DNA of 64,000 bases from Escherichia phage vB_EcoM_MM02. Shown here one piece after another: positions 2,188-43,634 of the stretch. Position 1 is the stretch's first letter. Every line of letters starts with the position of its first letter. Made by a program: the position numbers and the translations under genes. The notes beneath the pieces were generated by a model, which worked only from the letters and a program-made list of their open reading frames with translations, was not told the DNA's origin and did no database searches. Where the stretch lies: the sequence record MK373784.1; one strand, given 5' to 3'.

Positions 2188-3150
2188 TTATTTCCAAGTC
2201 AGTTCGCAGGTCAGTTGAAGAAGCATATACATAACATGTAATTCAATATTACTTGCTAATCCATGAAACTTATTATTTTCGCCTGCAATTTCATAAAGCG
2301 AAATAATACTTTTACCTGGTGCAACTTTGTCATAACACTCAGAAACTAATTTATCGATGAACCATGAATAATCTGCGGCATATTTTGGAGCTAACGCACG
2401 AAGCTGTTTGATATCTTTATTTTTCATTGCTTCTATGACATCATCTACCGTGCCACGATCATTGGTTACAATCGACAAAATACCTGCATCAAGAACACCT
2501 TTAGACGAGTACTGGTCTAATTGACCAATTGTACGTCGAAAGTCCGGGAAGTTCTTTTTAACCAGAGCTGCAACAACTTTCATATCAGCGATTTCGATAT
2601 TTTCGTTCTTACAGATTTCAACCATGCGATGAATCATTTTCTTCATCATTGAGATTTTATCTTCTTCGGTTGGACGTCCGAATTCGATAACTCGACAACG
2701 ACTACGTAACGGTTCGATAATTCCATCGATGTTGTTGGCAGTAATAATAATAGAACAGTTACTAGAGAATTCTTCCATGAATGTACGAAGGTGACGTTGT
2801 GATTCAGCGAGGCCACTACGGTCAAATTCATCAATAACAATAACTTTAGGCTTGCCTTCCATTGAGACTGAACGAGCGAATGCAGTTAATGGACCACGCA
2901 CAAAATCAATCTTACAATCAGAACCGTTGACGAACATCATTTCGGCATTGATATCATTACATAATGCTTTTGCTACGGTTGTTTTACCGGTACCAGGAGA
3001 TGGAGAGTGTAAAATAATATGAGGAAGTTTTCCTTTAGATACTAAAGACTTGAATGTTTCATGGTCATACGCAGGCAGAATACATTCGTCAATGGAAGAA
3101 GGACGATATTTCTGTTCTAGAATGTGTTCTTTGGAATTGATAGTAATCAT
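2188..3150 (-). CDS. 44: Clamp-loader large subunit gp44 (AAA+ ATPase)
   Basis: 320 aa; Walker [11 protein letters not shown]; N-terminus [17 protein letters not shown] matches T4 gp44. Confidence 0.9.
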
Positions 3151-3176
3151 GTAATTTTCCTCATTATCATTAAACT

Positions 3177-3192
3177 GGAGGATTTCTCCTCC
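3177..3192 (-). promoter_or_regulatory. Intercistronic hairpin between 45 and 44 (ggagga-tttc-tcctcc)
   Basis: Perfect 6-bp inverted repeat ~25 nt upstream of the gene 44 ATG. Confidence 0.35.
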
Positions 3193-3225
3193 ATAATCGT
3201 ATCACAATAAACGTAAAGCTTTGAC

Positions 3226-3912
3226 TTAGAAGTCGTGAGTAGAATCGGCTTCCATCGCAATAACATAACTTACTTGAGAGCTTTCAAACTTGGCTGCAAC
3301 TTTATCACCAGCTCCCCACAACATTACTTTATAGTTACCTGGCTGGATTTTCATATTAGCCATATTGATTACGAAGTTAAAGTTATTAGAACCATCATAA
3401 TCAGTAAGAGTCAAAGAATACTTAGGACGAGTTAGTCCGGAATCTTCAACTTTATTATAGCCATTGATAACAATTTTACCATCTTTATTTGTAATAGCAA
3501 TTGTATCAATCTGAAGTCCACGTGAAACTCGAAGCAATTGTTGAAGGTCTTCAGCTTTAATTTCAGTAATCACAGAAGCCACTGGGAATTGAATTGGCTT
3601 ATTAGGAAAAACAATGGTGCTCTTGTCAGCGGCAGGCCAATAAACTGTGGAACGTGTATCTGCAATTTTAATATTGCCATCAGTATGCATTGAAATTTCG
3701 GCATCATCAGACACTAGACTCAAAATGCTTAAGAAGCTATTCAAATCATAAAGTGCTACGTCAAAATCAATTTCATCAGAGATATTTGCTTCCGCATAAG
3801 TGGTGCCATTAACTGCACGAGTCATAATAAATTTACCTTGACTCAGCAGAATGCCAGAGTTAATAGAGGCAAAGTTTTTCAGAATAGCGATAGTATCTTT
3901 AGACAGTTTCAT
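3226..3912 (-). CDS. 45: Sliding clamp gp45
   Basis: Starts MKLSKDTIAILKNF (fifth codon of the track ORF) and ends ...ADSTHDF, matching T4 gp45 (228 aa). Confidence 0.9.
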   Translation of the reverse strand: MKLSKDTIAILKNFASINSGILLSQGKFIMTRAVNGTTYAEANISDEIDFDVALYDLNSFLSILSLVSDDAEISMHTDGNIKIADTRSTVYWPAADKSTIVFPNKPIQFPVASVITEIKAEDLQQLLRVSRGLQIDTIAITNKDGKIVINGYNKVEDSGLTRPKYSLTLTDYDGSNNFNFVINMANMKIQPGNYKVMLWGAGDKVAAKFESSQVSYVIAMEADSTHDF

Positions 3913-3954
3913 TTTATTTCCTTTCAAGACAATTCAAAGTTTATAACAAATTTA

Positions 3955-4371
3955 TTATGCAACAACCATCTGCTTTTTAATAGCTTCAGGCAGTGATTCA
4001 ATATATTCTGGAATTTTAGAAGCAACAATTTCGCCAGCTGCAATTAGTTGTTCGTCGGCATCAACACAGTAAAAATCTTCAAGGCGTTCAGAACCGTCTT
4101 TATCAAGAACGATTTTAGCACCTGCTTCGATAGAATCTTTATAGTGCTTACGCATCAGATGAATCCACATATCAGATACATCGTTATCAATAAAACCATA
4201 AATCATAAAACGAGTTTCTTGTGGCAAAGATTGGAGTTTTTTAGCACTTGCGTCATCACAATGCAGGACCCATGCTTTACGAACACGATTATGGTTATGT
4301 GGGTTAGCGTCAGTACGGATAGAAGTAACTTTCAGATCAGCAGCAGTGAAACCTTTAGCAGTAGTAAACAT
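3955..4371 (-). CDS. rpbA: RNA polymerase-binding protein RpbA (by synteny)
   Basis: 138-aa ORF immediately upstream of 45, the T4 rpbA position; no motif check possible. Confidence 0.5.
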   Translation of the reverse strand: MFTTAKGFTAADLKVTSIRTDANPHNHNRVRKAWVLHCDDASAKKLQSLPQETRFMIYGFIDNDVSDMWIHLMRKHYKDSIEAGAKIVLDKDGSERLEDFYCVDADEQLIAAGEIVASKIPEYIESLPEAIKKQMVVA

Positions 4372-6566: not shown

Positions 6567-6795
6567 TACACGCTTCAGCCATTTTAAGAATAGAGCCGGG
6601 AGTATCGTTGTCCATTATATTAAAGCTAAATTCAATAGCCCAGTCGGTGCAGACATGAACTGCTTTAACTTCATTGCCTTCAACGCGTAATGGCTCAATC
6701 CAATACTTGATAGTGTTCTTGAATCCATCATCGTCTTTAACGTCCATTTCAACTTCAAGTCCAAGCCCAGCATTATTAAATTCATCTAAAGTCAT
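6538..6795 (-). CDS. Hypothetical protein (T4 46.2 position)
   Basis: 85-aa ORF between 47 and 46. Confidence 0.45.
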   Translation of the reverse strand: MTLDEFNNAGLGLEVEMDVKDDDGFKNTIKYWIEPLRVEGNEVKAVHVCTDWAIEFSFNIMDNDTPGSILKMAEACIEDAYNGED

Positions 6796-7811
6796 TGTGT
6801 TGCCTCAATATAAAGTTCGTTGGAATATTTGACCAGCGCTTCTCTGTCTTCGTCTGAGATATCTGGAATCGCGTCAATATATTCTTTAATGATATCTTGA
6901 AGTGATTTAATCTCGATTTCCTGGTCGTCATCAGATTCAACACTGTTATCAACTTTAGAAACCATGCGAAGAGAGTGAACTACTTTTTCAAGTTCAGATT
7001 CAAACTTAGTCAACTCTGAATCAATTTCTGATACTATAACACGTACGGCTAGATTAGTATAATCAGAATAATTGATTTTGCCTTTAAACGGATAAGTGAT
7101 TCGTCGATGCCATGTTGTTTCATTAGGAATAAATTCCATACGTTCAACGTCAGTGTCAAATACCCAGAATCCGCGAGGGTCGTTCTCATCACCTGCAGTA
7201 AGGGTCCATGGTGTCCCAATATATTTGACGTTAGCAGCTTCAGAGATTGTGTGGAAGTGGCCAGACCAGACTTGTTTATAGGTCTTTAAGAAATCAGGTT
7301 CAAGCCCATGAGACTTCATTCCTTTATAGAAATAAAAGCCATTCAGTTCCCAGTGCCCAACACAATACGCTGCGGAAGAAGTCTTGATGTGCTCTAAGAT
7401 TTCACCTGTATTTTCTTCACACATCCATGGAACGATATCAATCAGACATCCGTCAAAATCTACAGTAGTTGGATGCTCGTAAATAGTAAAGTTTTCAAAT
7501 TGAGTCAACAATTCAGAAACAGTGTTAGGTGTTATTGTATTCTTAAACGCCATGTCATGGTTTCCTATCGTGACATGAACGTGAATGCCTGCTTTAGAAA
7601 TCATATCAACAATTTCACGATTGAATTCCATTGTACGATGTGTTATTGCTTTACGGACGTCAAACCAATCGCCGTACTGAATCCAAGTTTTAATCCCGTG
7701 TTTCTTAGAGTATTCAATTGCTTGACGAATACCATCACGTTGAATATCTTGAACCCATGGGTCGTCTTGTTTGACTCCGATATGGAAGTCGCCTAAGTGC
7801 AAAATTTTCAT
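6792..7811 (-). CDS. 47: Recombination endonuclease subunit gp47 (Mre11/SbcD-like)
   Basis: 339 aa; calcineurin-like phosphoesterase motifs (LGDFH, GNHD); same length as T4 gp47. Confidence 0.9.
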   Translation of the reverse strand: MKILHLGDFHIGVKQDDPWVQDIQRDGIRQAIEYSKKHGIKTWIQYGDWFDVRKAITHRTMEFNREIVDMISKAGIHVHVTIGNHDMAFKNTITPNTVSELLTQFENFTIYEHPTTVDFDGCLIDIVPWMCEENTGEILEHIKTSSAAYCVGHWELNGFYFYKGMKSHGLEPDFLKTYKQVWSGHFHTISEAANVKYIGTPWTLTAGDENDPRGFWVFDTDVERMEFIPNETTWHRRITYPFKGKINYSDYTNLAVRVIVSEIDSELTKFESELEKVVHSLRMVSKVDNSVESDDDQEIEIKSLQDIIKEYIDAIPDISDEDREALVKYSNELYIEATQ

Positions 7812-7856
7812 ATTATTTCCTCATTAGTTAATTCATTTTATCATCCGTTTATAAAG

Positions 7857-7882
7857 CAAAAAAGGAACTCCGAAGAGTTCCT
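7857..7882 (-). terminator. Rho-independent terminator (aggaactc-cgaa-gagttcct hairpin followed by T-run on minus strand)
   Basis: Perfect 8-bp stem with 4-nt loop followed by TTTTTT on the transcribed strand, overlapping the stop of the upstream small ORF. Confidence 0.6.
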
Positions 7883-8054
7883 ATCCACATAGTACACCGT
7901 ACAGAGGCTCATTTGAACTTTTAAATCGAATGGGCTTGTACGTAATAGTTCCTTCGGCTTTAGCTTTATCATAAGACTCTTTAAAATGTCTCATTCTTTC
8001 TGCTTTGCCTTTACGGATTTTATCGAAATTTTCAGAAGTCGGGATGTTCGTCAT
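7881..8054 (-). CDS. Hypothetical 57-aa protein (below the track's length cutoff)
   Basis: ATG with GAGG upstream; occupies the 47-55 gap where T4 carries a-gt. Confidence 0.3.
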   Translation of the reverse strand: MTNIPTSENFDKIRKGKAERMRHFKESYDKAKAEGTITYKPIRFKSSNEPLYGVLCG

Positions 8055-8093
8055 GCATAAGCACCTCTCAGAAAATGCCTAAATCAATTTCTC

Positions 8094-8315
8094 TCATCGT
8101 TTCCACCATTTCTTAACTTGAAATGAATCGACCCACACGAGTTGTTTTGGGTCTGCCTTTACAATAGGCGGACAAATTTCTGTAATAGAACCGTCGTGAT
8201 ATTCCTTTTCAGAAATTTTAACACAAAGAGGACCTCCCAATTTAAGGGTGAACCCTGCGTTCAGCTTCAGACGTTTAAACTTTGTTTGAACTAGCGCCAT
8301 TAATGATGTCCTCAA
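8094..8315 (-). CDS. Hypothetical small protein
   Basis: 73-aa ORF; true start probably an internal Met because it overlaps the next ORF. Confidence 0.3.
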   Translation of the reverse strand: MRTSLMALVQTKFKRLKLNAGFTLKLGGPLCVKISEKEYHDGSITEICPPIVKADPKQLVWVDSFQVKKWWKR

Positions 8316-8598
8316 TAGCCTGACGAGTAGTAACCCACTGGATTTTAATTAACTTGTCATTGTATGGTTGTCGTAGAATATCCCGAGATTTCTTAATAGC
8401 ATATTCGTAAGCTTCGAAGTTGTTTTGAATTGCTGCTTCTTGAGCATGAGCATAAAGACGGTTTAGTTCAAAACGATTCTTTTTAAGAATCTTTTCGGAT
8501 TTTTTACGTGCTTCAGCTTCATTTTTCTTTTGGATTTCTTGTAGCATTTTAGCTACTGCATCTTCTGCTTCTTTATTTTCAATAATCTCGGTAGTCAT
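8275..8598 (-). CDS. Hypothetical protein
   Basis: 107-aa ORF in the compact minus-strand array. Confidence 0.4.
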   Translation of the reverse strand: MTTEIIENKEAEDAVAKMLQEIQKKNEAEARKKSEKILKKNRFELNRLYAHAQEAAIQNNFEAYEYAIKKSRDILRQPYNDKLIKIQWVTTRQAIEDIINGASSNKV

Positions 8599-8599
8599 A

Positions 8600-8815
8600 T
8601 TATCTCATTAAATTAAAATAAAAACGTCCATCCTCTTCAATACAGAACTCATATTCAACTGGAGTCCCGTTTATCGAAAATGACACGTCATGTGGGTTCA
8701 AAGGGTCGATGTCAAAATTAATTTTAAATTCACGACCCAACAGTTTTACCAAATAAGGGATTGCTTCGTCAAAAGGTTCTTCTAAGTAGTTAGAGATGTC
8801 AATTGTCATCCTCAT
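8600..8815 (-). CDS. Hypothetical small protein
   Basis: Likely starts MRMTIDIS..., a few nt after the gene 55 stop; the track's longer ORF overlaps 55 in another frame. Confidence 0.35.
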
Positions 8816-9356
8816 ATAAAAAATCCAAACTAGGCGAATCGCTAACAACTTCCTTCTTTTCAGCCCCAGGAGCTTTATAAGCGGATTCTTCATAATGCGT
8901 CATTTTATCGTAGATGTCTTGAATAAATGTTTCATCTACCAACGCTACCATATCATCGTCATGACTGTCGTAGACATTATGAACGAAGTAACTATATTTC
9001 TTTGCAACTTCCTTACGTTCTTTTTTGATACGTTGGACAAAAGCATTAAAACAAGCTCGAGTTATGTATGCATGTGGGTTATTGTACTTAGTTTCGTCGA
9101 AATTATGAAGTCCCTTAATAGAGGCTTCAATCCCATCTGCAATCATCTCCTGCTTCCAAGACTGGGTATATCCTGAAAAGTTGAAACGTTTGGACAGGCC
9201 TTCGGCGATAAGCATAATTGCTAAACCGATGGTATCATTCTGACGAATAATTTTGTTTGGGTCTTTATTATTTAAGAGCTCCTTTTTCCACTCGATTATA
9301 GCGGCGAGAAGCTCTTTATTATTCACATAGTTATTTTTAGGTTTTTGTTCAGTCAT
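8799..9356 (-). CDS. 55: Late-transcription sigma factor gp55
   Basis: Sequence ...[16 protein letters not shown]...[28 protein letters not shown]... recognised as T4 gp55; ATG at 9356 with AGAGG SD gives 185 aa. Confidence 0.9.
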
Positions 9357-10620: not shown

Positions 10621-10821
10621 TTAACCGAACTTTTTAGCGCCTTTCCAGCCTTCGTACATAACTGCACAAGTCAGTAGTACAGCGTGCTGGCATTCTTTGT
10701 ATTTGTAAATCCAGAACCAGCGTAAGAAGTCTTCATCCTCAACGCCGTTGAGTTTCATATTGGCAAAGAATTCGGCACGTTCTTCACGAAGCTTTTGCGA
10801 TAACATAGATTCAGGATTCAT
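10621..10821 (-). CDS. Hypothetical protein
   Basis: 66-aa ORF. Confidence 0.35.
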   Translation of the reverse strand: MNPESMLSQKLREERAEFFANMKLNGVEDEDFLRWFWIYKYKECQHAVLLTCAVMYEGWKGAKKFG

Positions 10822-11045
10822 TTTGTGTTCCAGGCCCCATTTTCATCGATGAACTTAATCCAGTCATTTACAGACCATTTAGTTGTATCACCCTTTGGAT
10901 TAACATTTAAAGTATATAATCCCTGCTTAAAAAGCATTCGTTTGATATTCATAATTTCCTCAACTGTAACGATAACATTCGTTAGCTTTACGTTTGGCTT
11001 CAGTATGAGAAGTATTATAATCATACTCTTCTTTACTGTAAACAT
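10818..11045 (-). CDS. Hypothetical small protein (start uncertain)
   Basis: 75-aa ORF overlapping 10960..11280; real start probably an internal Met. Confidence 0.25.
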   Translation of the reverse strand: MFTVKKSMIIILLILKPNVKLTNVIVTVEEIMNIKRMLFKQGLYTLNVNPKGDTTKWSVNDWIKFIDENGAWNTK

Positions 11046-11280
11046 CTTTTTTCAACTTACGAACTTCTTTGCGGAGTTGTCGATTCATTTCATTCTTGAC
11101 TTCAGAATCAACGCCTTTCATACGTTTCCATTTATCTGAGCGGAAAATGTTTTCAACCATGTCTTTGTGGCTAACACCGTCAGGAGCTTTACGCTTACCA
11201 AAATAGTCATAATCGCGAACTTTCAAATCTTTACGACGATACGTTTTACCCATAAGTACCTCAGAGGTTGATTGATACAA
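10960..11280 (-). CDS. Hypothetical basic protein
   Basis: 106-aa Lys/Arg-rich ORF. Confidence 0.4.
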   Translation of the reverse strand: MYQSTSEVLMGKTYRRKDLKVRDYDYFGKRKAPDGVSHKDMVENIFRSDKWKRMKGVDSEVKNEMNRQLRKEVRKLKKDVYSKEEYDYNTSHTEAKRKANECYRYS

Positions 11281-11509
11281 CGCGTTTGATAAAATTCACT
11301 TCACTTACTGAAAGGTCTTTAAGACCGATTGATTCTAAACGCTGAGTAAGCGTCAACATCGGGATATAATCCCAATGAGTTTTATTTGCTTGATAAGTAC
11401 GAACGCCATTAGCAATTTCAACATGCAAATCGGAAATGGTAACGAATACCGGACGTTCGTCATTAACTTTAAGGGTTAGAACAACTTTCTTTGAATCTAA
11501 ACTAATCAT
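11261..11509 (-). CDS. Hypothetical protein
   Basis: 82-aa ORF. Confidence 0.4.
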   Translation of the reverse strand: MISLDSKKVVLTLKVNDERPVFVTISDLHVEIANGVRTYQANKTHWDYIPMLTLTQRLESIGLKDLSVSEVNFIKRVVSINL

Positions 11510-11688
11510 GACTTAATTTCCTTCGCAATTGAACAGAAGATACCACGGTCACAAAGCATTTCACCAATTTCTGGATATTTGATTGAACGGTACCAAACAT
11601 CCAGGCTTGAAACTCTGGTTATCTGTATGGCATTACCATTGACAGAATAGTACTGGTCAACCTTAATTTCTTTATCTTCAATTGTCAT
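11506..11688 (-). CDS. Hypothetical small protein
   Basis: Likely start MTIEDKEIK with GAGGA SD; the upstream extension overlaps a promoter cassette. Confidence 0.35.
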   Translation of the reverse strand: MTIEDKEIKVDQYYSVNGNAIQITRVSSLDVWYRSIKYPEIGEMLCDRGIFCSIAKEIKS

Positions 11689-11854
11689 TTTATTTTCCTC
11701 TATAGTAGATGGTTTAATCTTAACACATCTATTGAGGATGTAAACTGTTTTATGAAAATATTTTTTGATTTGAGAGGGGCACAAGGAGATAGTGAAGTGA
11801 AGATTCCAATGGATTATATTAGAAATGAGATAAAGAAGACCAGGCGGCACCTGG

Positions 11855-12178
11855 TCAATCTTCTATGATATCAGAGTCATATCCTAATGAAATCAAGGAC
11901 TTTTTAAACTCTGCAATATTCTTTTGTTTCTTATCATTTAAAAATATGACAGGATAACGAATATTAAGTGAAGTGAATCCTGCACGTTTAGCAAGAGATA
12001 CGATTAAAGGACGGTCATATTCAATCTTACCATTATTAGTGAGGACTTTATAAAATGTATAAGGAGCATTGAGATCCTTTAAAAGTTTTGTAACAGCATA
12101 ACATCCTGGACAACGTCCTACTTCTTCAGGGATGCCATAGATTTCAATCTTGTTCTTTAAGTTCGAGTTTTGTTCCAC
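11855..12178 (-). CDS. Glutaredoxin/NrdH-like redoxin (start uncertain, possibly GTG)
   Basis: CPGC active-site motif after KIEIYGIPEEVGR; the upstream part of the track ORF is the antisense shadow of 12144..12461. Confidence 0.5.
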   Translation of the reverse strand: MEQNSNLKNKIEIYGIPEEVGRCPGCYAVTKLLKDLNAPYTFYKVLTNNGKIEYDRPLIVSLAKRAGFTSLNIRYPVIFLNDKKQKNIAEFKKSLISLGYDSDIIED

Positions 12179-12789: not shown

Positions 12790-13260
12790 TTAATCATGTT
12801 TCCACACCCCATCGCTATTTGACCAAAGTCGCTGATTATCTGATCCTCGCCAAAGCTTTTTAGTCGGAAGATTTTTCTCATACTTCCCATCAATAATAAC
12901 ATCAACATATTTAAGCATTTCTAGTTGTTTAATATCTTCAAACTTATATCCTGTCCACAACCAAATGCTTTTATTGGGATAAAGATTTTTTACTGTTTGA
13001 GCAATGCGATGAATAACATCTCGGTTATCAGGATAGAGAGGGTCTCCTCCGGTTATAGTTAATCCTTCTATATAATCATTATTCAAACATTCAATCAATT
13101 GTTCTAGTGTCTCTCCAGTGAATGGAGTACCATTTCTAGCATTCCATGTTGATTTATTATAACACCCTTCACATTTATGCAAACAACCTGTAACGAAAAG
13201 AACGACCCTGCATCCAGGGCCATTCACAAAATCGCAAGGATAAAATCTATCATAATTCAT
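12790..13260 (-). CDS. nrdG: Anaerobic ribonucleotide reductase activating protein NrdG (radical SAM)
   Basis: 156 aa; Cx3Cx2C motif CLHKCEGC; directly downstream of nrdD. Confidence 0.85.
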   Translation of the reverse strand: MNYDRFYPCDFVNGPGCRVVLFVTGCLHKCEGCYNKSTWNARNGTPFTGETLEQLIECLNNDYIEGLTITGGDPLYPDNRDVIHRIAQTVKNLYPNKSIWLWTGYKFEDIKQLEMLKYVDVIIDGKYEKNLPTKKLWRGSDNQRLWSNSDGVWKHD

Positions 13261-15074
13261 TGGTGTTTAACCCTATGCATGATTTCTTTATTTTTACCGA
13301 GATTAAATCCGCGCTCGTTCGGATTTCCCAAATAGCCGCATGTTCTTCTTATAGTGTTCATCTTTTTAGGATCAGTTTCTCCACAAACTGAACAAACAAA
13401 TCCGTTTTCAGTAGGAGTCATCTCATGGGTACTTCCACATGTAAAACATTTATCTACTGGCATATTAACACCAAAATAATCTAAATGTTGTGCAGCATAA
13501 TCCCAGACAGCCTCGAGTCCCTTTAAATTGTTTTTCATATCAGGAAGTTCAACATAAGAAATGTGACCACCTGTCGCAATGAAATGATATGGCGCTTCAC
13601 GAGAAATCTTTTCAAACGGAGTAATATTTTCTTCTACTGAAACATGGAAACTATTAGTGTACCAGCCTTTATCGGTAACATCCTTTACATTTCCATATTT
13701 TTCTGTATCGAGTTTACAGAAGCGATAACAAAGGTTTTCAGCAGGAGTAGAATACAAACTAAAAGCAAATCCAGTTCTTTCGGACCACTGTTTAAGATGA
13801 GCATTCATTTTAGTTAAAATTTCTTGCCCAATATCACGACCGACAAGAATATTCAATTCGTGAATACCAATGTATCCTAAAGACACTGAACTTCTACCGT
13901 TTTTAAATAACTCAATTATGTCGTCATCAGGTTTAAGACGAACCCCGAATGCACCTTCTTGGTAAAGAATAGGAGCAACAGTAGCTTTAACTCCTTTTAA
14001 GGAACTAATTCTACACATCAAAGCTTCAAAACATAAATCCATTCGTTCATTGAATAATTCAACAAATTTCTGTTCGTTAAATTGCGTTCCAATATAAGAA
14101 TCTAACGCGATGCGAGGAAGATTCAATGTTACAACACCAAGATTATTGCGACCATCAAGAATTTCATTACCGGTCGAATCTTTCCATACGCTCAAGAAAC
14201 TACGGCAGCCCATTGGAGAAACAGGAACTGAAGAACCGGTAATAGCTTTATTATTCTTAACCGAAATAATGTCAGGATACATTCTTTTGCTTGCACATTC
14301 TAACGCAAGTTGTTTAATATCATAGTTCGGATCATCTTTATAAAGATTAACACCTTCTTCAACAAACATAACAAGTTTAGGAAAAATAGGAGTTATTCCA
14401 TCACGACCAAGACCTTTAATGCGGTTTTTAAGAATTGCCTTCTGAATCATTCGTTCGGTCCAGTCAGTTCCCGTACCAAATGTAATTGTTACAAAAGGCG
14501 TTTGTCCGTTTGAACTAAAGAGAGTATTTACTTCATATTCATAAGCTTGGAATGCATCGTATACATCTTTTTCTGTTTTGGATTGAGCATAATTCAACGC
14601 ATCAGCGATTTGCCATTTTTCTGCATCCTCAATATGTTTAGCGTATGTGCGTTTAACATAAGGAGAAAGAACTTTATCTACATTCGCAAATGTAGTTCCG
14701 CCATACTGGTGTGAAGCAACTTGTGCGGTAATTTGTGCCATAATTGCAGTAGCAACGCCAATAGATTTAGGCGTTTCAATTTGAGCATTGCCTAATTTAA
14801 ATCCATTCTCAAGCATTCCTTTTAAATCTACTAAACAGCAATTAGTAAAAGGCAATGATATACTGTAATCTAAATCATGAAAATGAATTAATCCAACATT
14901 ATGGGCATTTACAATATGACTTGGAAGAATACGACAAGCGATATGTTTAGAAACAATACCGGCCATTAAATCTCTTTTTGTTGGAAAGACACGAGAATCT
15001 TTGTTGGCGTTTTCGGTATTTAATTCTTTATCTTTATTTGAAATAAAATTTAAAACATCTTTCTCTAAAGACAT
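13257..15074 (-). CDS. nrdD: Anaerobic ribonucleoside-triphosphate reductase NrdD
   Basis: 605 aa; C-terminal Zn-ribbon cysteines and glycyl-radical motif RRTCGYLG; uninterrupted. Confidence 0.9.
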   Translation of the reverse strand: MSLEKDVLNFISNKDKELNTENANKDSRVFPTKRDLMAGIVSKHIACRILPSHIVNAHNVGLIHFHDLDYSISLPFTNCCLVDLKGMLENGFKLGNAQIETPKSIGVATAIMAQITAQVASHQYGGTTFANVDKVLSPYVKRTYAKHIEDAEKWQIADALNYAQSKTEKDVYDAFQAYEYEVNTLFSSNGQTPFVTITFGTGTDWTERMIQKAILKNRIKGLGRDGITPIFPKLVMFVEEGVNLYKDDPNYDIKQLALECASKRMYPDIISVKNNKAITGSSVPVSPMGCRSFLSVWKDSTGNEILDGRNNLGVVTLNLPRIALDSYIGTQFNEQKFVELFNERMDLCFEALMCRISSLKGVKATVAPILYQEGAFGVRLKPDDDIIELFKNGRSSVSLGYIGIHELNILVGRDIGQEILTKMNAHLKQWSERTGFAFSLYSTPAENLCYRFCKLDTEKYGNVKDVTDKGWYTNSFHVSVEENITPFEKISREAPYHFIATGGHISYVELPDMKNNLKGLEAVWDYAAQHLDYFGVNMPVDKCFTCGSTHEMTPTENGFVCSVCGETDPKKMNTIRRTCGYLGNPNERGFNLGKNKEIMHRVKHQ

Positions 15075-15886
15075 AATTCTAATTTATCCTTTTGAAATTC
15101 TTCGTCTAAATATGGGTTCCAACCCATTTTAAACCTTTTGATGAAATTATCAATTCTAAATTTCGGTAAGTTTAAATCCGCAAAAATAGATGATTTACTT
15201 TTAAAATCTGGACCTAAATAATCATATAAAATTTCTGCGTATTTTAACCATAATATACAAGTACCGGATTTAATTGCGTTCGGAGTTTTCCAAGGTTTTA
15301 CACCATACATCGGATTTCCACTTCCTTTATGCCTGATAGAAGATGAAATTCCAATTTTAATTTTAGCTTCCTTTGTATGCGAAAATCCACGATGCGGATT
15401 TTCTTTCCAGTATTTTTTAGAAGCTTCTGATATTTTCTTTCTGGCTAAATTAGTATGATGCTTTCCATAAAATCCATTATTTTTGCCTTTATTACGATTT
15501 CTTTTAATCATGGTTATTGATTGCTTTTCTCTAGTTTCTTTAGAAGGAGAAATACCATATGTCGTAAATTTGCCATCAGCATATGCTAAATTAAAATACT
15601 CTTTATTCCATACATCTTTTTCTATATTCTTTTGAAATTCAGCTTCAATGCTAGTTATTTGTTCATCTCCGACTAATTGAAAATATAATATTTCAACTTT
15701 CGGCGTTTCTTTCAATAAGGCTTTTTGAAATTCGGAAGATGACGAAGACGAATAATAAAATTTACCATTTTTATCAATAATATTCGTTCCATCAAAAGTG
15801 CAATTGGTTTTACTTCCAATGTAATAATATGGTGGGGTTTTAGCATTAATTCTATTAATAAATGATAGTTTATATACTACATTCAT
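15065..15886 (-). CDS. Free-standing GIY-YIG homing endonuclease (Seg-like) with NUMOD3-type repeats
   Basis: N-terminal VVYKL...YYYIGSK pattern; two HTxxAKxKIS-like repeats; overlaps both the gene 49 stop and the nrdD start. Confidence 0.6.
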   Translation of the reverse strand: MNVVYKLSFINRINAKTPPYYYIGSKTNCTFDGTNIIDKNGKFYYSSSSSSEFQKALLKETPKVEILYFQLVGDEQITSIEAEFQKNIEKDVWNKEYFNLAYADGKFTTYGISPSKETREKQSITMIKRNRNKGKNNGFYGKHHTNLARKKISEASKKYWKENPHRGFSHTKEAKIKIGISSSIRHKGSGNPMYGVKPWKTPNAIKSGTCILWLKYAEILYDYLGPDFKSKSSIFADLNLPKFRIDNFIKRFKMGWNPYLDEEFQKDKLELCL

Positions 15887-22683: not shown

Positions 22684-23685
22684 TTATTTCAGTAAAGTAA
22701 CTTCCGAGATTTCCTCCCAACCATCTTTATCAGTTGAAATAAAATCTGCTACATAAAGAGCCGTACGTAATGATACATTGCGAAGACGAGATACGTTAGC
22801 CTTCATCCAGGACAATGCTTTATACGTTTCTGCATCAGTCAGACCACGTTTCTGCATCATGTCAGTAGATAATATTACATCTTCAACTCGAACCATAATC
22901 TCTTCATTAGAGTGTACTCCAAGGTCGAGATACACTGAACGAGATACTAAAGCTTGAAGGTGTGGAGCAAGTTTCGAACCCCGTTCTAACTCTTTATCGA
23001 TATCAACGTTTGTAATGAAAACGATAGTACCTTCAAACTCAAATTCTTTATCAATACCCTTATCCTCGAGATAAGATGACGCAGTGCTCCAACAAACTTT
23101 GCGTTTATCTCCGGTGTCTAATGCTGCTTTAAGAAGATTCAAGATGTCCATATCTGAGAATACGTCAACGTCGTCGATTAAGAGAACGCTGTCTGCATCA
23201 CGGTTGAGCCAAAGTTGTTCGTAAAGGCCAATACCAGAGATTTTACCATTAATGCTTTTGTATTTGATGAAACCGTTATCATTAGCATTATTAAGTGCTT
23301 TATCCAGAGAATACGTCTTACCAATACCGGCTGCACCTGAAATAATGAGTGAACGAATTTTGCCATCGATAATGCCATTCGTCATCATGTTCATTACTTT
23401 AAAGCGTTTGTTGATACGAGTTTTCATATCTTCAGTGCTTTCAACAACTGCAACTGGTGATGTCTCAACTCCTTCCATTACGATGTCTGATTTGAAGACC
23501 CATACTCCACGTTCAGAACCATCAATCATAACGAAAATTTTACCATCACCTAAGTGGGAACATTCAGGATTAAGCTTTGCCGGGAACCAGGTCTTTGTGG
23601 CAACATAAGAACCAGAGATTTCGTTATTACGATAGATACCTTTTTTGATTTGAATGTTGAACATTTTATTCTCCAATTTACTCAT
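22684..23685 (-). CDS. Predicted P-loop NTPase (AAA-like)
   Basis: 333 aa; Walker A GAAGIGKT and Walker B VLLIDDVD after a ~110-aa N-terminal domain. Confidence 0.6.
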   Translation of the reverse strand: MSKLENKMFNIQIKKGIYRNNEISGSYVATKTWFPAKLNPECSHLGDGKIFVMIDGSERGVWVFKSDIVMEGVETSPVAVVESTEDMKTRINKRFKVMNMMTNGIIDGKIRSLIISGAAGIGKTYSLDKALNNANDNGFIKYKSINGKISGIGLYEQLWLNRDADSVLLIDDVDVFSDMDILNLLKAALDTGDKRKVCWSTASSYLEDKGIDKEFEFEGTIVFITNVDIDKELERGSKLAPHLQALVSRSVYLDLGVHSNEEIMVRVEDVILSTDMMQKRGLTDAETYKALSWMKANVSRLRNVSLRTALYVADFISTDKDGWEEISEVTLLK

Positions 23686-24080: not shown

Positions 24081-25067
24081 TTATTTATAGTAAGAATTAT
24101 GATTTTCGAGATAGACTTGCTCAAGGAAATCATCCCAGAAACTCATATCTACTTTTTGTTGCATACCGTTCTTAGCGGCTTGTTCTGATGCTTGTTCTAC
24201 CTGGTCAACAATGTCTTCCAGGAATTCTTGTACAGTTTTAAACGTATGTTTACCAAGCTTAACATCGAGAATAAATGGAGCATCCTGAAGTGGGTAAACC
24301 AGGTCGCCGGTTTTGTAAATTTCCAATAATTGAAGTCCACCACGACATGCATGACTCAATGCTTTCCAGTCAATACCTTCGTTAGCTTCTGCCTTACGAG
24401 CACGTTCACCATAGTTCTCTTCCAGTTTAACCAGGATGGCATTGAACTCTTTATTGGTTAACGTATCTTGGAATTTACGGTCTAACAGATTATAGAATGT
24501 TTGCTTACCTGTTTTCTCGTTTTCGGTTTCAACCCACGAAGCAAATTCACCTACAGGCAGAACATTCTTCATATGTGATAAACGAATTACTGCACCATTA
24601 TCAAAGTATTGTCCCCATTCATTAGAACGTTTAAGGGCTTGACGAAGAACAGCCAGTCGAGAACCCTTGACGCCGTATTTAGAAGCTTGCTTACGGACAT
24701 ACCCTAAATAAGATTTCATGTTAGTGGTATAGAAACGAGACCTGTTATCTTGAATATATTTCCATACATCAGGCAAATCAGATTTAACTACTAGACTTTG
24801 TGGAGTGTGAAGCATATCTAATGCGACGGTTTCACCATCCGCAGCTAGTTTAAAGAAATATTTGAGACTATACAACTCATGGTCCACGTCGTCTTTTGTG
24901 TTCTTAGAAGATGTGTTATTCGTGTTCTTGCTCATGTGTTCTTTAACGTTACCAGTCAAGATATCACGAGCATGAGGGACATAAATTTCTTTAAAATCGA
25001 CGTCAGATTCGGGAGTAGACGTTCCGTAAAGGTGGCTACCAAAGTAAGCCTTAACAATCGTTTTCAT
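24081..25067 (-). CDS. Predicted Pol-beta-superfamily nucleotidyltransferase
   Basis: 328 aa; N-terminal FGSHLYGTSTPESDVDF fits the hG[GS]x9-13DhD NTase signature; start overlaps the stop of the upstream membrane-protein ORF. Confidence 0.55.
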   Translation of the reverse strand: MKTIVKAYFGSHLYGTSTPESDVDFKEIYVPHARDILTGNVKEHMSKNTNNTSSKNTKDDVDHELYSLKYFFKLAADGETVALDMLHTPQSLVVKSDLPDVWKYIQDNRSRFYTTNMKSYLGYVRKQASKYGVKGSRLAVLRQALKRSNEWGQYFDNGAVIRLSHMKNVLPVGEFASWVETENEKTGKQTFYNLLDRKFQDTLTNKEFNAILVKLEENYGERARKAEANEGIDWKALSHACRGGLQLLEIYKTGDLVYPLQDAPFILDVKLGKHTFKTVQEFLEDIVDQVEQASEQAAKNGMQQKVDMSFWDDFLEQVYLENHNSYYK

Positions 25068-31679: not shown

Positions 31680-31988
31680 TCAATTAGAAAATAAATTTAT
31701 CCAAGTTTTTTCTTTAATCAAAAATGGGTCGGAATTAAACGCCATTAAACTTTGAGTGATTAATCCCTTAAATGGCCCATCAATAAATTCCATTTTGAAA
31801 TGCGGAATACTAGTCATCAACCGTGCATTAGGAGCAGTACAAAGAACCTGCTGCCCTGCGAACGGACCTTTAGTCAAACGATATCGTTTAGGTTTAAAAT
31901 GGTAAATCTCGTAATTTTCTACAAGGGCCCTTTTATTGCATACTGGGCTGTTATAACAATATTCAAAAACTTCAATAGTGGTCATCAT
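31680..31988 (-). CDS. Hypothetical protein
   Basis: 102-aa ORF. Confidence 0.4.
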   Translation of the reverse strand: MMTTIEVFEYCYNSPVCNKRALVENYEIYHFKPKRYRLTKGPFAGQQVLCTAPNARLMTSIPHFKMEFIDGPFKGLITQSLMAFNSDPFLIKEKTWINLFSN

Positions 31989-35229: not shown

Positions 35230-35717
35230 CTCAAATTCCTGCATTCGGTAATAAAACGTTCAACTTCATTATTCTTGGCCTTTATCTTGTCTTTACGTTC
35301 CTGTAAACTACTTTTAACAAGATTAATAATGATGCCTACAGTACCGCCGCCAATGATGCCACCAACAACACTTATGATAATAGATGCTAATAAGATAGCA
35401 ATAATATCAACAAAACCGAAAGAACTCACCTTAGTACTAAAAAACCATACCGACGGTACAAATATAATCCATCCTGTTATCCATTGGCACTTATTGAAAA
35501 ACTTTTCAAGCTCAGCTTGAGTTGTTCGTATTACTTCATCGATAGGTTGATATCCATTAATGTATCTGTTCACGATAATACCTGCTGGCTGGTCGATTTT
35601 AAATTCTTGGCAAATATGTTTCACTAAGTAGGATGGACATCCTGTCCAATCTACTGAATAGTATGAAATACCTTCGTTGCCATCGTCTATATTAGACCAA
35701 TATGTTTTGTTAATCAT
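35226..35717 (-). CDS. Hypothetical membrane protein, C-terminal FITECR motif
   Basis: 163 aa; one or two TM helices; ends ...ERFITECRNLR. Confidence 0.45.
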   Translation of the reverse strand: MINKTYWSNIDDGNEGISYYSVDWTGCPSYLVKHICQEFKIDQPAGIIVNRYINGYQPIDEVIRTTQAELEKFFNKCQWITGWIIFVPSVWFFSTKVSSFGFVDIIAILLASIIISVVGGIIGGGTVGIIINLVKSSLQERKDKIKAKNNEVERFITECRNLR

Positions 35718-36403
35718 TACCAGCCTTCCATAGGGAATTCCAGATAAACTTGAGCATTGACACGAATTTCATTGGTAATCTTTTTAACTCGGTCTGTATT
35801 ACGAGATACACGTCCGAACCAACGCCATCCGTTACTAATTGCACGAGAACCAGTGTGCCATGTTTGCCAATCAAACTGAAGAAGAGTACGATCTGGAGCT
35901 TCCCATTTCTCTAGTTCACCTTTTTCAATTTTTTCGAGGACTTCTTTGTGCCACTGGCGATAGATAAGTTCGCCATCAGGAATCTGACTGAACTCTGCAG
36001 TTCCTGTTGCAAAATGAGTAGGACACACGTCAGCGTTAACAAGACCAAGAATATGTTCAGAATGGTAACGAGGGTTGTCATAGTCAGGTTGTCCTGCAGT
36101 AATAAAGTGTTGACCAACTGGAATATCAGGGCGAGGAACATCGTCATGGTGGTATCCAGGAATAGCAGGATACCAACCAGGCATCAGCATATGAACCCGA
36201 GAATCAAATACAACATGTTGATTAGTCCAATCAATTGGGAGATTGGCAATAAAGCTACGAGTGATTGAGCCACCATTATCCCAAGCAAAACCCAAATCAC
36301 AATTAAAGAACATTGGTTCATTTTTGATTCGGTCATTTTGTACGTTATGTGCAAAACTACCAACTGCACGAGCTTGACTATTAAAAGTTTTAGAACTATT
36401 CAT
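35717..36403 (-). CDS. Hypothetical 228-aa protein
   Basis: His/Asp-rich segments (GYHHDDVP); no confident family assignment. Confidence 0.45.
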   Translation of the reverse strand: MNSSKTFNSQARAVGSFAHNVQNDRIKNEPMFFNCDLGFAWDNGGSITRSFIANLPIDWTNQHVVFDSRVHMLMPGWYPAIPGYHHDDVPRPDIPVGQHFITAGQPDYDNPRYHSEHILGLVNADVCPTHFATGTAEFSQIPDGELIYRQWHKEVLEKIEKGELEKWEAPDRTLLQFDWQTWHTGSRAISNGWRWFGRVSRNTDRVKKITNEIRVNAQVYLEFPMEGW

Positions 36404-37049: not shown

Positions 37050-38006
37050 TTATTTGAAAGGTTTTACCATATGGAAATTTTGTTTGAAACGTTTGACGTA
37101 ATCGTCGTGTCCTAAGCTTTGGTACATACTTACTACTTTGCTATAATTTTCCCAAGCGAACTCACGGAACCATCCTGATGTGATTGATGTACAGACCTTT
37201 TCAAGGGCCATCATAAAACTATCACGTGGATGGATTTTAAAGTCGTTAGGAATCTGTGAACGTTCAAGAGCTAATACACAAGCTTCTTCATATACACCGG
37301 CTAATTTAACCATTTCTGGGAATGATTCGAACTTCTCGCGCGATGTCATAACTTCTGAGCCTTCTTTCATATAAAACTTATAAGCAGGCTGGTCAGTTAG
37401 TGCAATGGCTTCATGGATAGTATCATGGTCATACGTATAGATGTCATCTTTAAAGAACGCACTTTTAGAAGTGTCAAGAACTGGGTGAGCATAATTCAAG
37501 GTTTCTTTCTGGCGTTTCAGCATAATTTCAGTAAGTTCATCGTTCAGTGTAACACCTTTACCACGAAGATACTGAATATGGTTCATAGTCTTTAAAAAGA
37601 ATGGATTATTTTTCTTGAAACGATGAGACATCTTAATTGCAAGACATATCTCAGGAGTTGCCCAGTAAAACCCGTTCAAACGGTCTTTAGTCAAATTTTT
37701 CTTGGCGTATTTTAAAAGGTCATAAGAAGACGTGAAATCTTCAGGAGTGAGTTCACCGACTAGTTCGCGAACGTTAGTGATAGCCGGAACGATGTATGCT
37801 TCAAAATGAGTTTCGCGTCCATTATGGAAGCATTTGAAAACTTGGACATCAGGGTTATCTTGGTGAACATATACACCCATCATTTGATTTTTGAATGCAT
37901 TCCAAGAACCTTGGTCCGCAATAAAGTCCCAATCACTATTTTTAATAGCGCTAGAATCAATAAGACCGTGATAGTGAAGTGCACGAGAACCAATAACTAA
38001 CATCAT
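37050..38006 (-). CDS. Hypothetical 318-aa protein
   Basis: Largest ORF in the e-tRNA island; N-terminal VIGSRALHYHG...SDWDF is weakly NTase-like. Confidence 0.45.
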   Translation of the reverse strand: MMLVIGSRALHYHGLIDSSAIKNSDWDFIADQGSWNAFKNQMMGVYVHQDNPDVQVFKCFHNGRETHFEAYIVPAITNVRELVGELTPEDFTSSYDLLKYAKKNLTKDRLNGFYWATPEICLAIKMSHRFKKNNPFFLKTMNHIQYLRGKGVTLNDELTEIMLKRQKETLNYAHPVLDTSKSAFFKDDIYTYDHDTIHEAIALTDQPAYKFYMKEGSEVMTSREKFESFPEMVKLAGVYEEACVLALERSQIPNDFKIHPRDSFMMALEKVCTSITSGWFREFAWENYSKVVSMYQSLGHDDYVKRFKQNFHMVKPFK

Positions 38007-43479: not shown

Positions 43480-43556
<77 letters not shown>

Positions 43557-43559
43557 GAT

Positions 43560-43634
43560 TGGTGACCCTGGCTGGTTTCGATCCAGCTACCTATCAGTTA
43601 TGAGCTGACAGCTCTCCCATTGAGCTACAGGGCC
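43560..43634 (-). tRNA. tRNA with CAT anticodon (Ile2 or Met type), CCA encoded
   Basis: Hand-folded cloverleaf: acceptor GGCCCTG/CAGGGTC, D stem GCTC/GAGC, anticodon loop CTCATAA, T stem GCTGG/CCAGC, 3' ACCA. Confidence 0.7.

Follow-up and report, generated by a model that had tools for sequence, protein, structure and literature searches.

What modifies the DNA of a T-even-like phage that has no alpha-glucosyltransferase gene at the place where T4 carries one? The question is raised by Escherichia phage vB_EcoM_MM02 (MK373784.1), of which a stretch of 64,000 nucleotides (nt), hereafter the window, was analysed, and within the window by the interval between genes 47 and 55. In T4 the genes here follow one another in the order 47, 47.1, a-gt (400 amino acid residues, aa), mobB, a-gt.2 to a-gt.5 and 55; an earlier note on this sequence had correctly placed the T4 a-gt between 47 and 55. 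We consider it highly probable that the interval is the standard 47–55 segment of the genus Mosigvirus, the RB69-like Tevenvirinae, and that a-gt is not needed in this phage, the cytosines of which would be arabinosylated by a pathway encoded outside the window.

The exact stretch from the start codon of gene 47 to the stop codon of gene 55 is 7812–8798. It contains four minus-strand open reading frames (ORFs), closely packed or overlapping, together with a UUCG-loop terminator and a motif resembling a middle promoter. The earlier note had described three or four small ORFs and no a-gt, and both statements are borne out: the ORFs number four, they are the orthologues of a-gt.2 to a-gt.5, the largest of them encodes 107 aa, and tblastn yielded no credible match to a-gt. 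The same note had proposed a genome search for agt/bgt and gene 42, and the search, when run on the 64-kb window, found none of them. The best tblastn match of T4 a-gt had an E value of 0.012 over 85 aa and lay inside a P-loop ATPase gene, the best match of T4 b-gt had an E value of 0.62, RB14 ba-gt matched nothing at E≤1, and neither T4 gp42 (dCMP hydroxymethylase) nor the modification proteins of related phages (RB69 ORF003c and the JK45 set, introduced below) gave anything credible. Nor does the window encode a protein of families PF11440 or PF09198 (AGT and b-gt); as a positive control, T4 a-gt matched PF11440 with an E value of 2.9e-260. It should be noted that the position held by b-gt or ba-gt in T4, next to gene 42, falls outside the span of the window.

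The weak matches near 23.2–23.9 kb on the minus strand (T4 a-gt, E 0.012; RB69 ORF003c, E 0.035) were considered as traces of a hidden GT-B protein and were rejected as Rossmann/P-loop noise. The ORF at 22684–23685 is orthologous to T4 nrdC.10 (77% identity), contains a Walker A motif and matches AAA-type families in Pfam.

High nucleotide identity to, and synteny with, Mosigvirus genomes place the window in that genus. A 2.8-kb region is 98.8–99.4% identical to at least 30 Mosigvirus-type genomes of E. coli and Shigella phages, including G53, JK45, NBG1, APCEc01 and AlbertHofmann, and two 25-kb blocks have their best matches in JK42 and JK45, at ~98% identity. Database taxonomy lists AlbertHofmann as Mosigvirus phapec2 and assigns RB69 to Mosigvirus as well. 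The gene order of the window is that of RB69 and JK45, and its position 1 corresponds to position 31,728 of JK45, inside gene 43.

The genes of the interval agree with this placement. Its downstream boundary is gene 47, which encodes an SbcD-like subunit of a recombination endonuclease (6792–7811, minus strand, 339 aa; phrog_100, E 1.6e-135); the protein is 100% identical to that of vB_EQ1 and ~76–78% identical to Tequatrovirus gp47, and the records of AlbertHofmann and JK45 carry the gp47 annotation. The upstream boundary is gene 55, the late sigma factor (8799–9356, minus; phrog_234, E 3.9e-68), on which the JK45 gp55 annotation, mapped onto the window, falls exactly. Between them, all on the minus strand, lie the orthologues of a-gt.2 (7881–8054, 57 aa, DUF5486; PF17588, E 4.5e-27; phrog_2140), a-gt.3 (8094–8300, 68 aa; phrog_1648, E 2.1e-34, with no family in a Pfam search), a-gt.4 (8275–8598, 107 aa, DUF2654; PF10849, E 1e-27; phrog_951) and a-gt.5 (8600–8815, 71 aa, DUF5491; PF17595, E 5.8e-13; phrog_1169), the last sharing 17 nt with the 3' end of gene 55. 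The three Pfam assignments pass their gathering thresholds, with 94.1 bits for DUF5486 (cut-off 27), 96.6 for DUF2654 (25) and 49.4 for DUF5491 (27). Identity to the T4 proteins is 72, 69, 54 and 49% for a-gt.2 to a-gt.5, respectively; identity to the RB69 proteins is 93% for a-gt.2 and 100% for the other three. The a-gt.4 family is also found in Krischvirus and Jiaodavirus, and a-gt.2 to a-gt.5 are kept beside gene 55 in phages that use glucose, arabinose or neither. A literature search for the functions of these four genes yielded just one mention, in a comparative-genomics study of 2006. The a-gt.2 ORF also gave a partial match (E 1e-13), 34 residues long against a profile of 62 positions, to phrog_17354; this PHROG, labelled "head maturation protease", is probably mislabelled.

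The chemistry of Mosigvirus DNA has been described. Homologues of a-gt, b-gt and ba-gt are absent from RB69, its DNA carries arabinose rather than glucose, and ORF003c was proposed as the transferase (Thomas et al., Viruses 2018; PMC6024577). In RB69, 5-hydroxycytosine bearing one or two arabinoses, linked through an ether at C5, takes the place of all cytidines (Lee et al., NAR 2026; PMC13326640). According to the same study, the ThyA homologue gp48 makes 5-hydroxy-deoxycytidine monophosphate (5-hodCMP), i.e., it is a 5-hodCMP synthase; gp46:47, a single ORF that is split in the RB69 record through a sequencing error, and gp3 (ORF003c), both of GT-B type, are proposed to act as the first and the second arabinosyltransferase, respectively; and gp50–55 are the proposed makers of the nucleoside diphosphate (NDP)-arabinose donor (PMC13326640). 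The DNA of a second Mosigvirus, phage NP of the Durham collection, contains 5-ara-dC and 5-ara-ara-dC at 1:4 and is cut by the GmrSD-family enzyme BrxU (PMC13390438). Mosigvirus isolates, like those of Tequatrovirus, are essentially insensitive to six restriction-modification systems (BASEL study; PMC8594841).

JK45, the nearest complete genome at ~98% identity to the window, shows where the corresponding genes lie. Its arabinose module is situated between uvsX and gene 43, at 23.6–30.1 kb, and ends ~1.6 kb before the position at which the window starts. It contains genes for a thymidylate-kinase-like protein, a fused 299-aa homologue of gp46:47 (gp042, 24144–25043), a ThyA-family protein (PF00303, E 2.3e-15), a peptidase-like protein, a phosphoheptose-isomerase-like protein, a fusion of nucleoside triphosphate (NTP)-transferase and kinase, and a SIS-domain arabinose-5-phosphate isomerase. 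The product of the ThyA-family gene (25.0–25.8 kb) shares 25% identity with gp42 (E 1.3e-10); in RB69 the orthologous enzyme makes 5-hodCMP and is no hydroxymethylase (PMC13326640). The second transferase gene stands apart, between rIIA.1 and gene 39 at 3.0–4.1 kb, where a 366-aa protein (gp004, 3023–4123) is 99% identical to RB69 ORF003c. Transferases of the ORF003c type occur in 155 phage records at ≥95% identity, including APCEc01, NBG1, mar005P1 and AlbertHofmann, in the last of which the protein is annotated as a "putative hmC-arabinosyltransferase" (hmC, 5-hydroxymethylcytosine); homologues in Acinetobacter phages are ~42% identical.

As for glucosyltransferases, tblastn, which covered the first 34 kb of JK45, found no gene of the a-gt, b-gt or ba-gt type there, b-gt and ba-gt giving no match at E≤0.01 in a region that includes the uvsX–gene 43 segment. 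The part from 80 to 170 kb was judged from the annotation tables, in which every coding sequence of ≥250 aa bears a T4-type name, except gp210 (30.2) and the aldolase-like gp198; apart from these two, this part contains no unassigned gene of a size sufficient for a GT-B protein.

Three features of the JK45 record may be mentioned in passing. First, gp003 (136 aa, 2520–2930) repeats, at 99% identity, the C-terminal 130 residues of the adjoining arabinosyltransferase gp004; RB69 lacks such a copy, which reflects either the tandem duplication of part of the gene or an error of assembly. Second, gp198 (330 aa, 10752–11744 of JK45 locus L014), which adjoins dCMP deaminase and lies outside the window, is annotated as "phospho-2-dehydro-3-deoxyheptonate aldolase"; a protein of this KdsA/DAHP-synthase-like kind could touch arabinose-5-phosphate metabolism. 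Third, the RefSeq taxonomy line of JK45 (NC_054940.1, a Shigella phage) reads "Tequatrovirus jaykay". This genus label looks wrong, because the genome is ~98% identical to the Mosigvirus window and carries both an RB69-type arabinose module and an ORF003c homologue.

Since the ~98% identity between the window and its relatives reaches the very edge of the module, the standard Mosigvirus arabinose module is very likely present in this genome too. As extrapolated from these genomes, the ThyA-like 5-hodCMP synthase would make 5-hydroxycytosine at the nucleotide level, replacing cytosine; two GT-B arabinosyltransferases would then mono- and di-arabinosylate it, using an NDP-arabinose donor made by the phage-encoded sugar cluster; and the genes for these steps would be sited between uvsX and gene 43 and between rIIA.1 and gene 39, both beyond the window. 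The earlier conclusion that the DNA modification departs from that of T4 is right: no glucosyltransferase was detected in the window or in the first 34 kb of JK45, and none is reported in RB69 (PMC6024577). What does not stand is the implied picture of a T4-like hmC phage merely devoid of its sugar transferase: the genus possesses a ThyA-family 5-hodCMP synthase instead of gene 42, an NDP-arabinose cluster and two proposed arabinosyltransferases, so the modification would differ from that of T4 because a separate, published pathway operates, not because glycosyltransferases are lacking. The trait itself is already known and published at the level of the genus, and our analysis adds nothing to it beyond recognising the window as Mosigvirus.

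Several points weigh against this interpretation. The window begins inside gene 43, and so both the arabinose module and ORF003c fall outside the sequence seen; moreover, no database record is identical to the window, the best matches reaching ~98%. The RB69 arabinosyltransferase assignments are structural and syntenic predictions, biochemical support being limited to the 5-hodCMP synthase and to gp76 and gp77 of DLP3 (PMC13326640). Pfam-A and NCBIfam (release 20) miss both Mosigvirus arabinosyltransferases (JK45 gp004 and gp042) at E≤0.01–0.1. Finally, two window ORFs of at least 200 aa (35717–36403 and 37050–38006) remain without T4 counterparts and without an assigned function.

An alternative proposal, which takes the conditional statement of the earlier note literally, is that the genome encodes no DNA glycosyltransferase at all and that its cytosines bear no sugar, being plain cytosine, hmC or 5-hydroxycytosine. 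Such a proposal could appeal to the fact that no glycosyltransferase of a known phage type was detected in 64 kb. However, both arabinosyltransferase genes are present in every close relative examined, and they lie there outside the span of the window, which starts just ~1.6 kb past the end of the JK45 module; furthermore, in two Mosigvirus phages whose DNA was analysed chemically, the cytosines proved to be fully arabinosylated (PMC13390438, PMC13326640). We therefore regard sugar-free DNA as very improbable.

The last two points bear on the idea that the window ORFs include a DNA glycosyltransferase too divergent to have been recognised, which attaches one more sugar. When ten to thirteen large ORFs without an assignment were scanned against Pfam, PHROGs and NCBIfam, no glycosyltransferase was found, and this silence is weak evidence, because the profile libraries also miss the known arabinosyltransferases. 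The same insensitivity means that routine annotation will go on naming the Mosigvirus arabinosyltransferases hypothetical proteins. Most of the large window ORFs without a core-gene name, on the other hand, have T4 orthologues (nrdC.3–.11, mobD.1, vs.8, e.5 and e.6); the three that do not are a NUMOD3 homing endonuclease (15065–15886) and the two ORFs named above, the latter two without an informative family. The ORF at 35717–36403 (minus, 228 aa; phrog_1843) belongs to the nudE–e.x block, ~700 nt from nudE, and has a chance-level similarity (E 0.13) to isopentenyl diphosphate (IPP) isomerase, an enzyme of Nudix fold. The ORF at 37050–38006 (minus, 318 aa; phrog_2141) matches Pfam DUF7277 and DUF7275, and it begins with a GS...DWD motif (VIGSRAL...SDWDFI) that resembles, as read from the sequence, the Pol-beta-type nucleotidyltransferase motif G[GS]...DxD. 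Sequence searches of the PDB with both gave chance-level matches only. Neither ORF is similar by tblastn to any of five phage DNA glycosyltransferases; the first is, at 228 aa, short, and the motif of the second is Pol-beta-like rather than that of a GT-B N-terminus. In addition, the structure-based analysis of RB69 named gp3 and gp46:47 alone (PMC13326640), and Mosigvirus DNA bears two arabinoses at most (PMC13390438, PMC13326640). A hidden transferase in the window is accordingly, in our opinion, scarcely to be expected. Hardly more credit is due to the broader possibility that something else is at work, namely a sugar decoration unlike that of RB69, for instance one added by an unrecognised extra transferase encoded at 35717–36403 or 37050–38006, or a function of a-gt.2 to a-gt.5 at the replication fork in support of DNA glycosylation generally.

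If arabinosylation encoded elsewhere explains why the phage can do without a-gt, the question that follows is how the interval came to lack it, and here the noncoding part of the interval becomes relevant. The terminator, which the earlier note had rightly called strong, is a predicted Rho-independent element on the minus strand that was found by a terminator scan (whole element 7852–7882, hairpin 7882→7863). It reads AGGAACTC-UUCG-GAGUUCCU, followed by UUUUUUGCUUU; that is, a G+C-rich hairpin with an 8-bp stem and a UUCG tetraloop begins at the stop codon of a-gt.2 and runs into a tract of six U's. The RNA fold has an energy of −13.9 kcal/mol (z = −2.88 against shuffles), and the G53 and NBG1 records annotate a terminator at the same place.

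Middle promoters of T4 that depend on MotA combine a MotA box, TGCTTtA, with a −10 element, TAnnnT, that lies ~12 bp downstream of it. The window has a match to this consensus, TGCTTTA-N11-TAAAAT, at 7858→7835 on the minus strand; the match comes directly after the terminator and is itself followed by a ribosome-binding site and the start codon (ATG) of gene 47. Across the window, TGCTTYA-N11-13-TANNNT was counted 8 times where 1.64 would be expected (5-fold enriched), and none of 100 shuffles reached 8; JK45 encodes MotA. The element at 7835–7858 is placed to drive gene 47 and would be a MotA-type promoter, to judge from its sequence and position. The same combination of hairpin and promoter-like motif precedes mobB in T4, a-gt in RB14 and gene 47 in the window; T4 and RB14 keep the hairpin at a-gt.2 with the same UUCG loop and a stem sequence different from that of the window. 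In RB14, a-gt is bracketed by two similar modules (12040–12095 and 13300–13365 of RB14 locus L007), each with a UUCG-loop hairpin, GCTTTATA and a −10-like hexamer, whereas the window has one (7835–7882).

These modules bear on the possibility of a secondary loss, in which an ancestor of Mosigvirus had a-gt between a-gt.2 and gene 47 and lost it after gaining the arabinose pathway, so that the present interval is the scar of a deletion. The arrangement in RB14 could fit the gain or the loss of a cassette by recombination, and an exchange between its two bracketing modules could leave a single one, as in the window. Further support comes from the presence of a-gt at exactly this junction in two genera of Tevenvirinae. 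In Tequatrovirus, RB14 has 47.1 and a-gt without mobB, so mobB is a homing-endonuclease insertion specific to T4. In Jiaodavirus, Klebsiella phage PKO111 has the same backbone of 55, an a-gt.5-like gene, DUF2654 (a-gt.4), two small ORFs and 47, with an a-gt 66% identical to that of T4 directly upstream of gene 47 and without 47.1. Altogether, T4-type a-gt is found in 657 records, at ≥90% identity in Tequatrovirus-type coliphages and at ~65% in Klebsiella Jiaodavirus.

Nevertheless, recombination between the RB14 modules would leave 47.1, which the window does not have, and tblastn found no remnant of an a-gt pseudogene in the window. The 47–55 interval contains small ORFs only in Mosigvirus 25307, Gelderlandvirus Melville, Krischvirus ECD7 and Lazarusvirus AM101. 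As these examples illustrate, an interval without a-gt is common in Straboviridae and not peculiar to this phage; and since Gelderlandvirus (Tevenvirinae) and Krischvirus and Lazarusvirus (both Twarogvirinae) lack a-gt at this place, an ancestor without the gene is the more parsimonious assumption for the family as a whole. On balance, we consider a secondary loss rather unlikely, if still far more plausible than sugar-free DNA or a hidden transferase, and lean towards the gain of a-gt in the Tequatrovirus/Jiaodavirus lineage.

Two further differences from T4 were noticed elsewhere in the window. A free-standing NUMOD3 homing endonuclease without a T4 counterpart (15065–15886, minus, 273 aa; phrog_7504) adjoins gene 49 and overlaps the 5' end of nrdD (13257–15074), which is intact in the window, whereas in JK45 and T4 nrdD is interrupted by the I-TevII intron. 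At 43480–43634, on the minus strand, the window has two tRNA genes only (Arg-TCT and Met-CAT), whereas T4 has eight tRNAs there, together with rnaC, rnaD and segB.

Whether a T-even phage evades a given host defence or sets it off depends on the type of its cytosine hypermodification; the defences concerned include restriction-modification systems, CRISPR, DNA glycosylases and type IV enzymes such as GmrSD/BrxU. In Mosigvirus this has already been worked out, from the lack of a-gt and b-gt and the chemistry of the arabinose to the candidate enzymes and the sensitivity to BrxU (PMC6024577, PMC13326640, PMC13390438, PMC8594841). The practical value of the present locus is that of an annotation cue: a 47–55 interval without a-gt and with RB69-like a-gt.2–.5 proteins indicates an arabinosylating phage.

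Compared with T4, then, the window shares the flanking genes, the four a-gt.x ORFs (49–72% identity) and the module of hairpin and MotA box, and it differs in having a 69-nt intergenic spacer at the site where T4 has the block of 47.1, a-gt and mobB, ~2.3 kb in length. The arabinosyl-5-hydroxycytosine pathway of RB69 and DLP3 was defined in the genus to which the window belongs; the window itself contains no gene of this pathway, and the genome would belong among the arabinosylating phages by virtue of its relatives. The closest correspondence is with RB69 (NC_004928; RB69p066–p071), in which gene order and spacing from 47 to 55 are identical to those of the window and the interval is annotated as a-gt.2 to a-gt.5, without a-gt, 47.1 or mobB, as in the window. 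There is no difference of substance between the two, and the phage studied here is another Mosigvirus isolate, nearer to JK42 and JK45.

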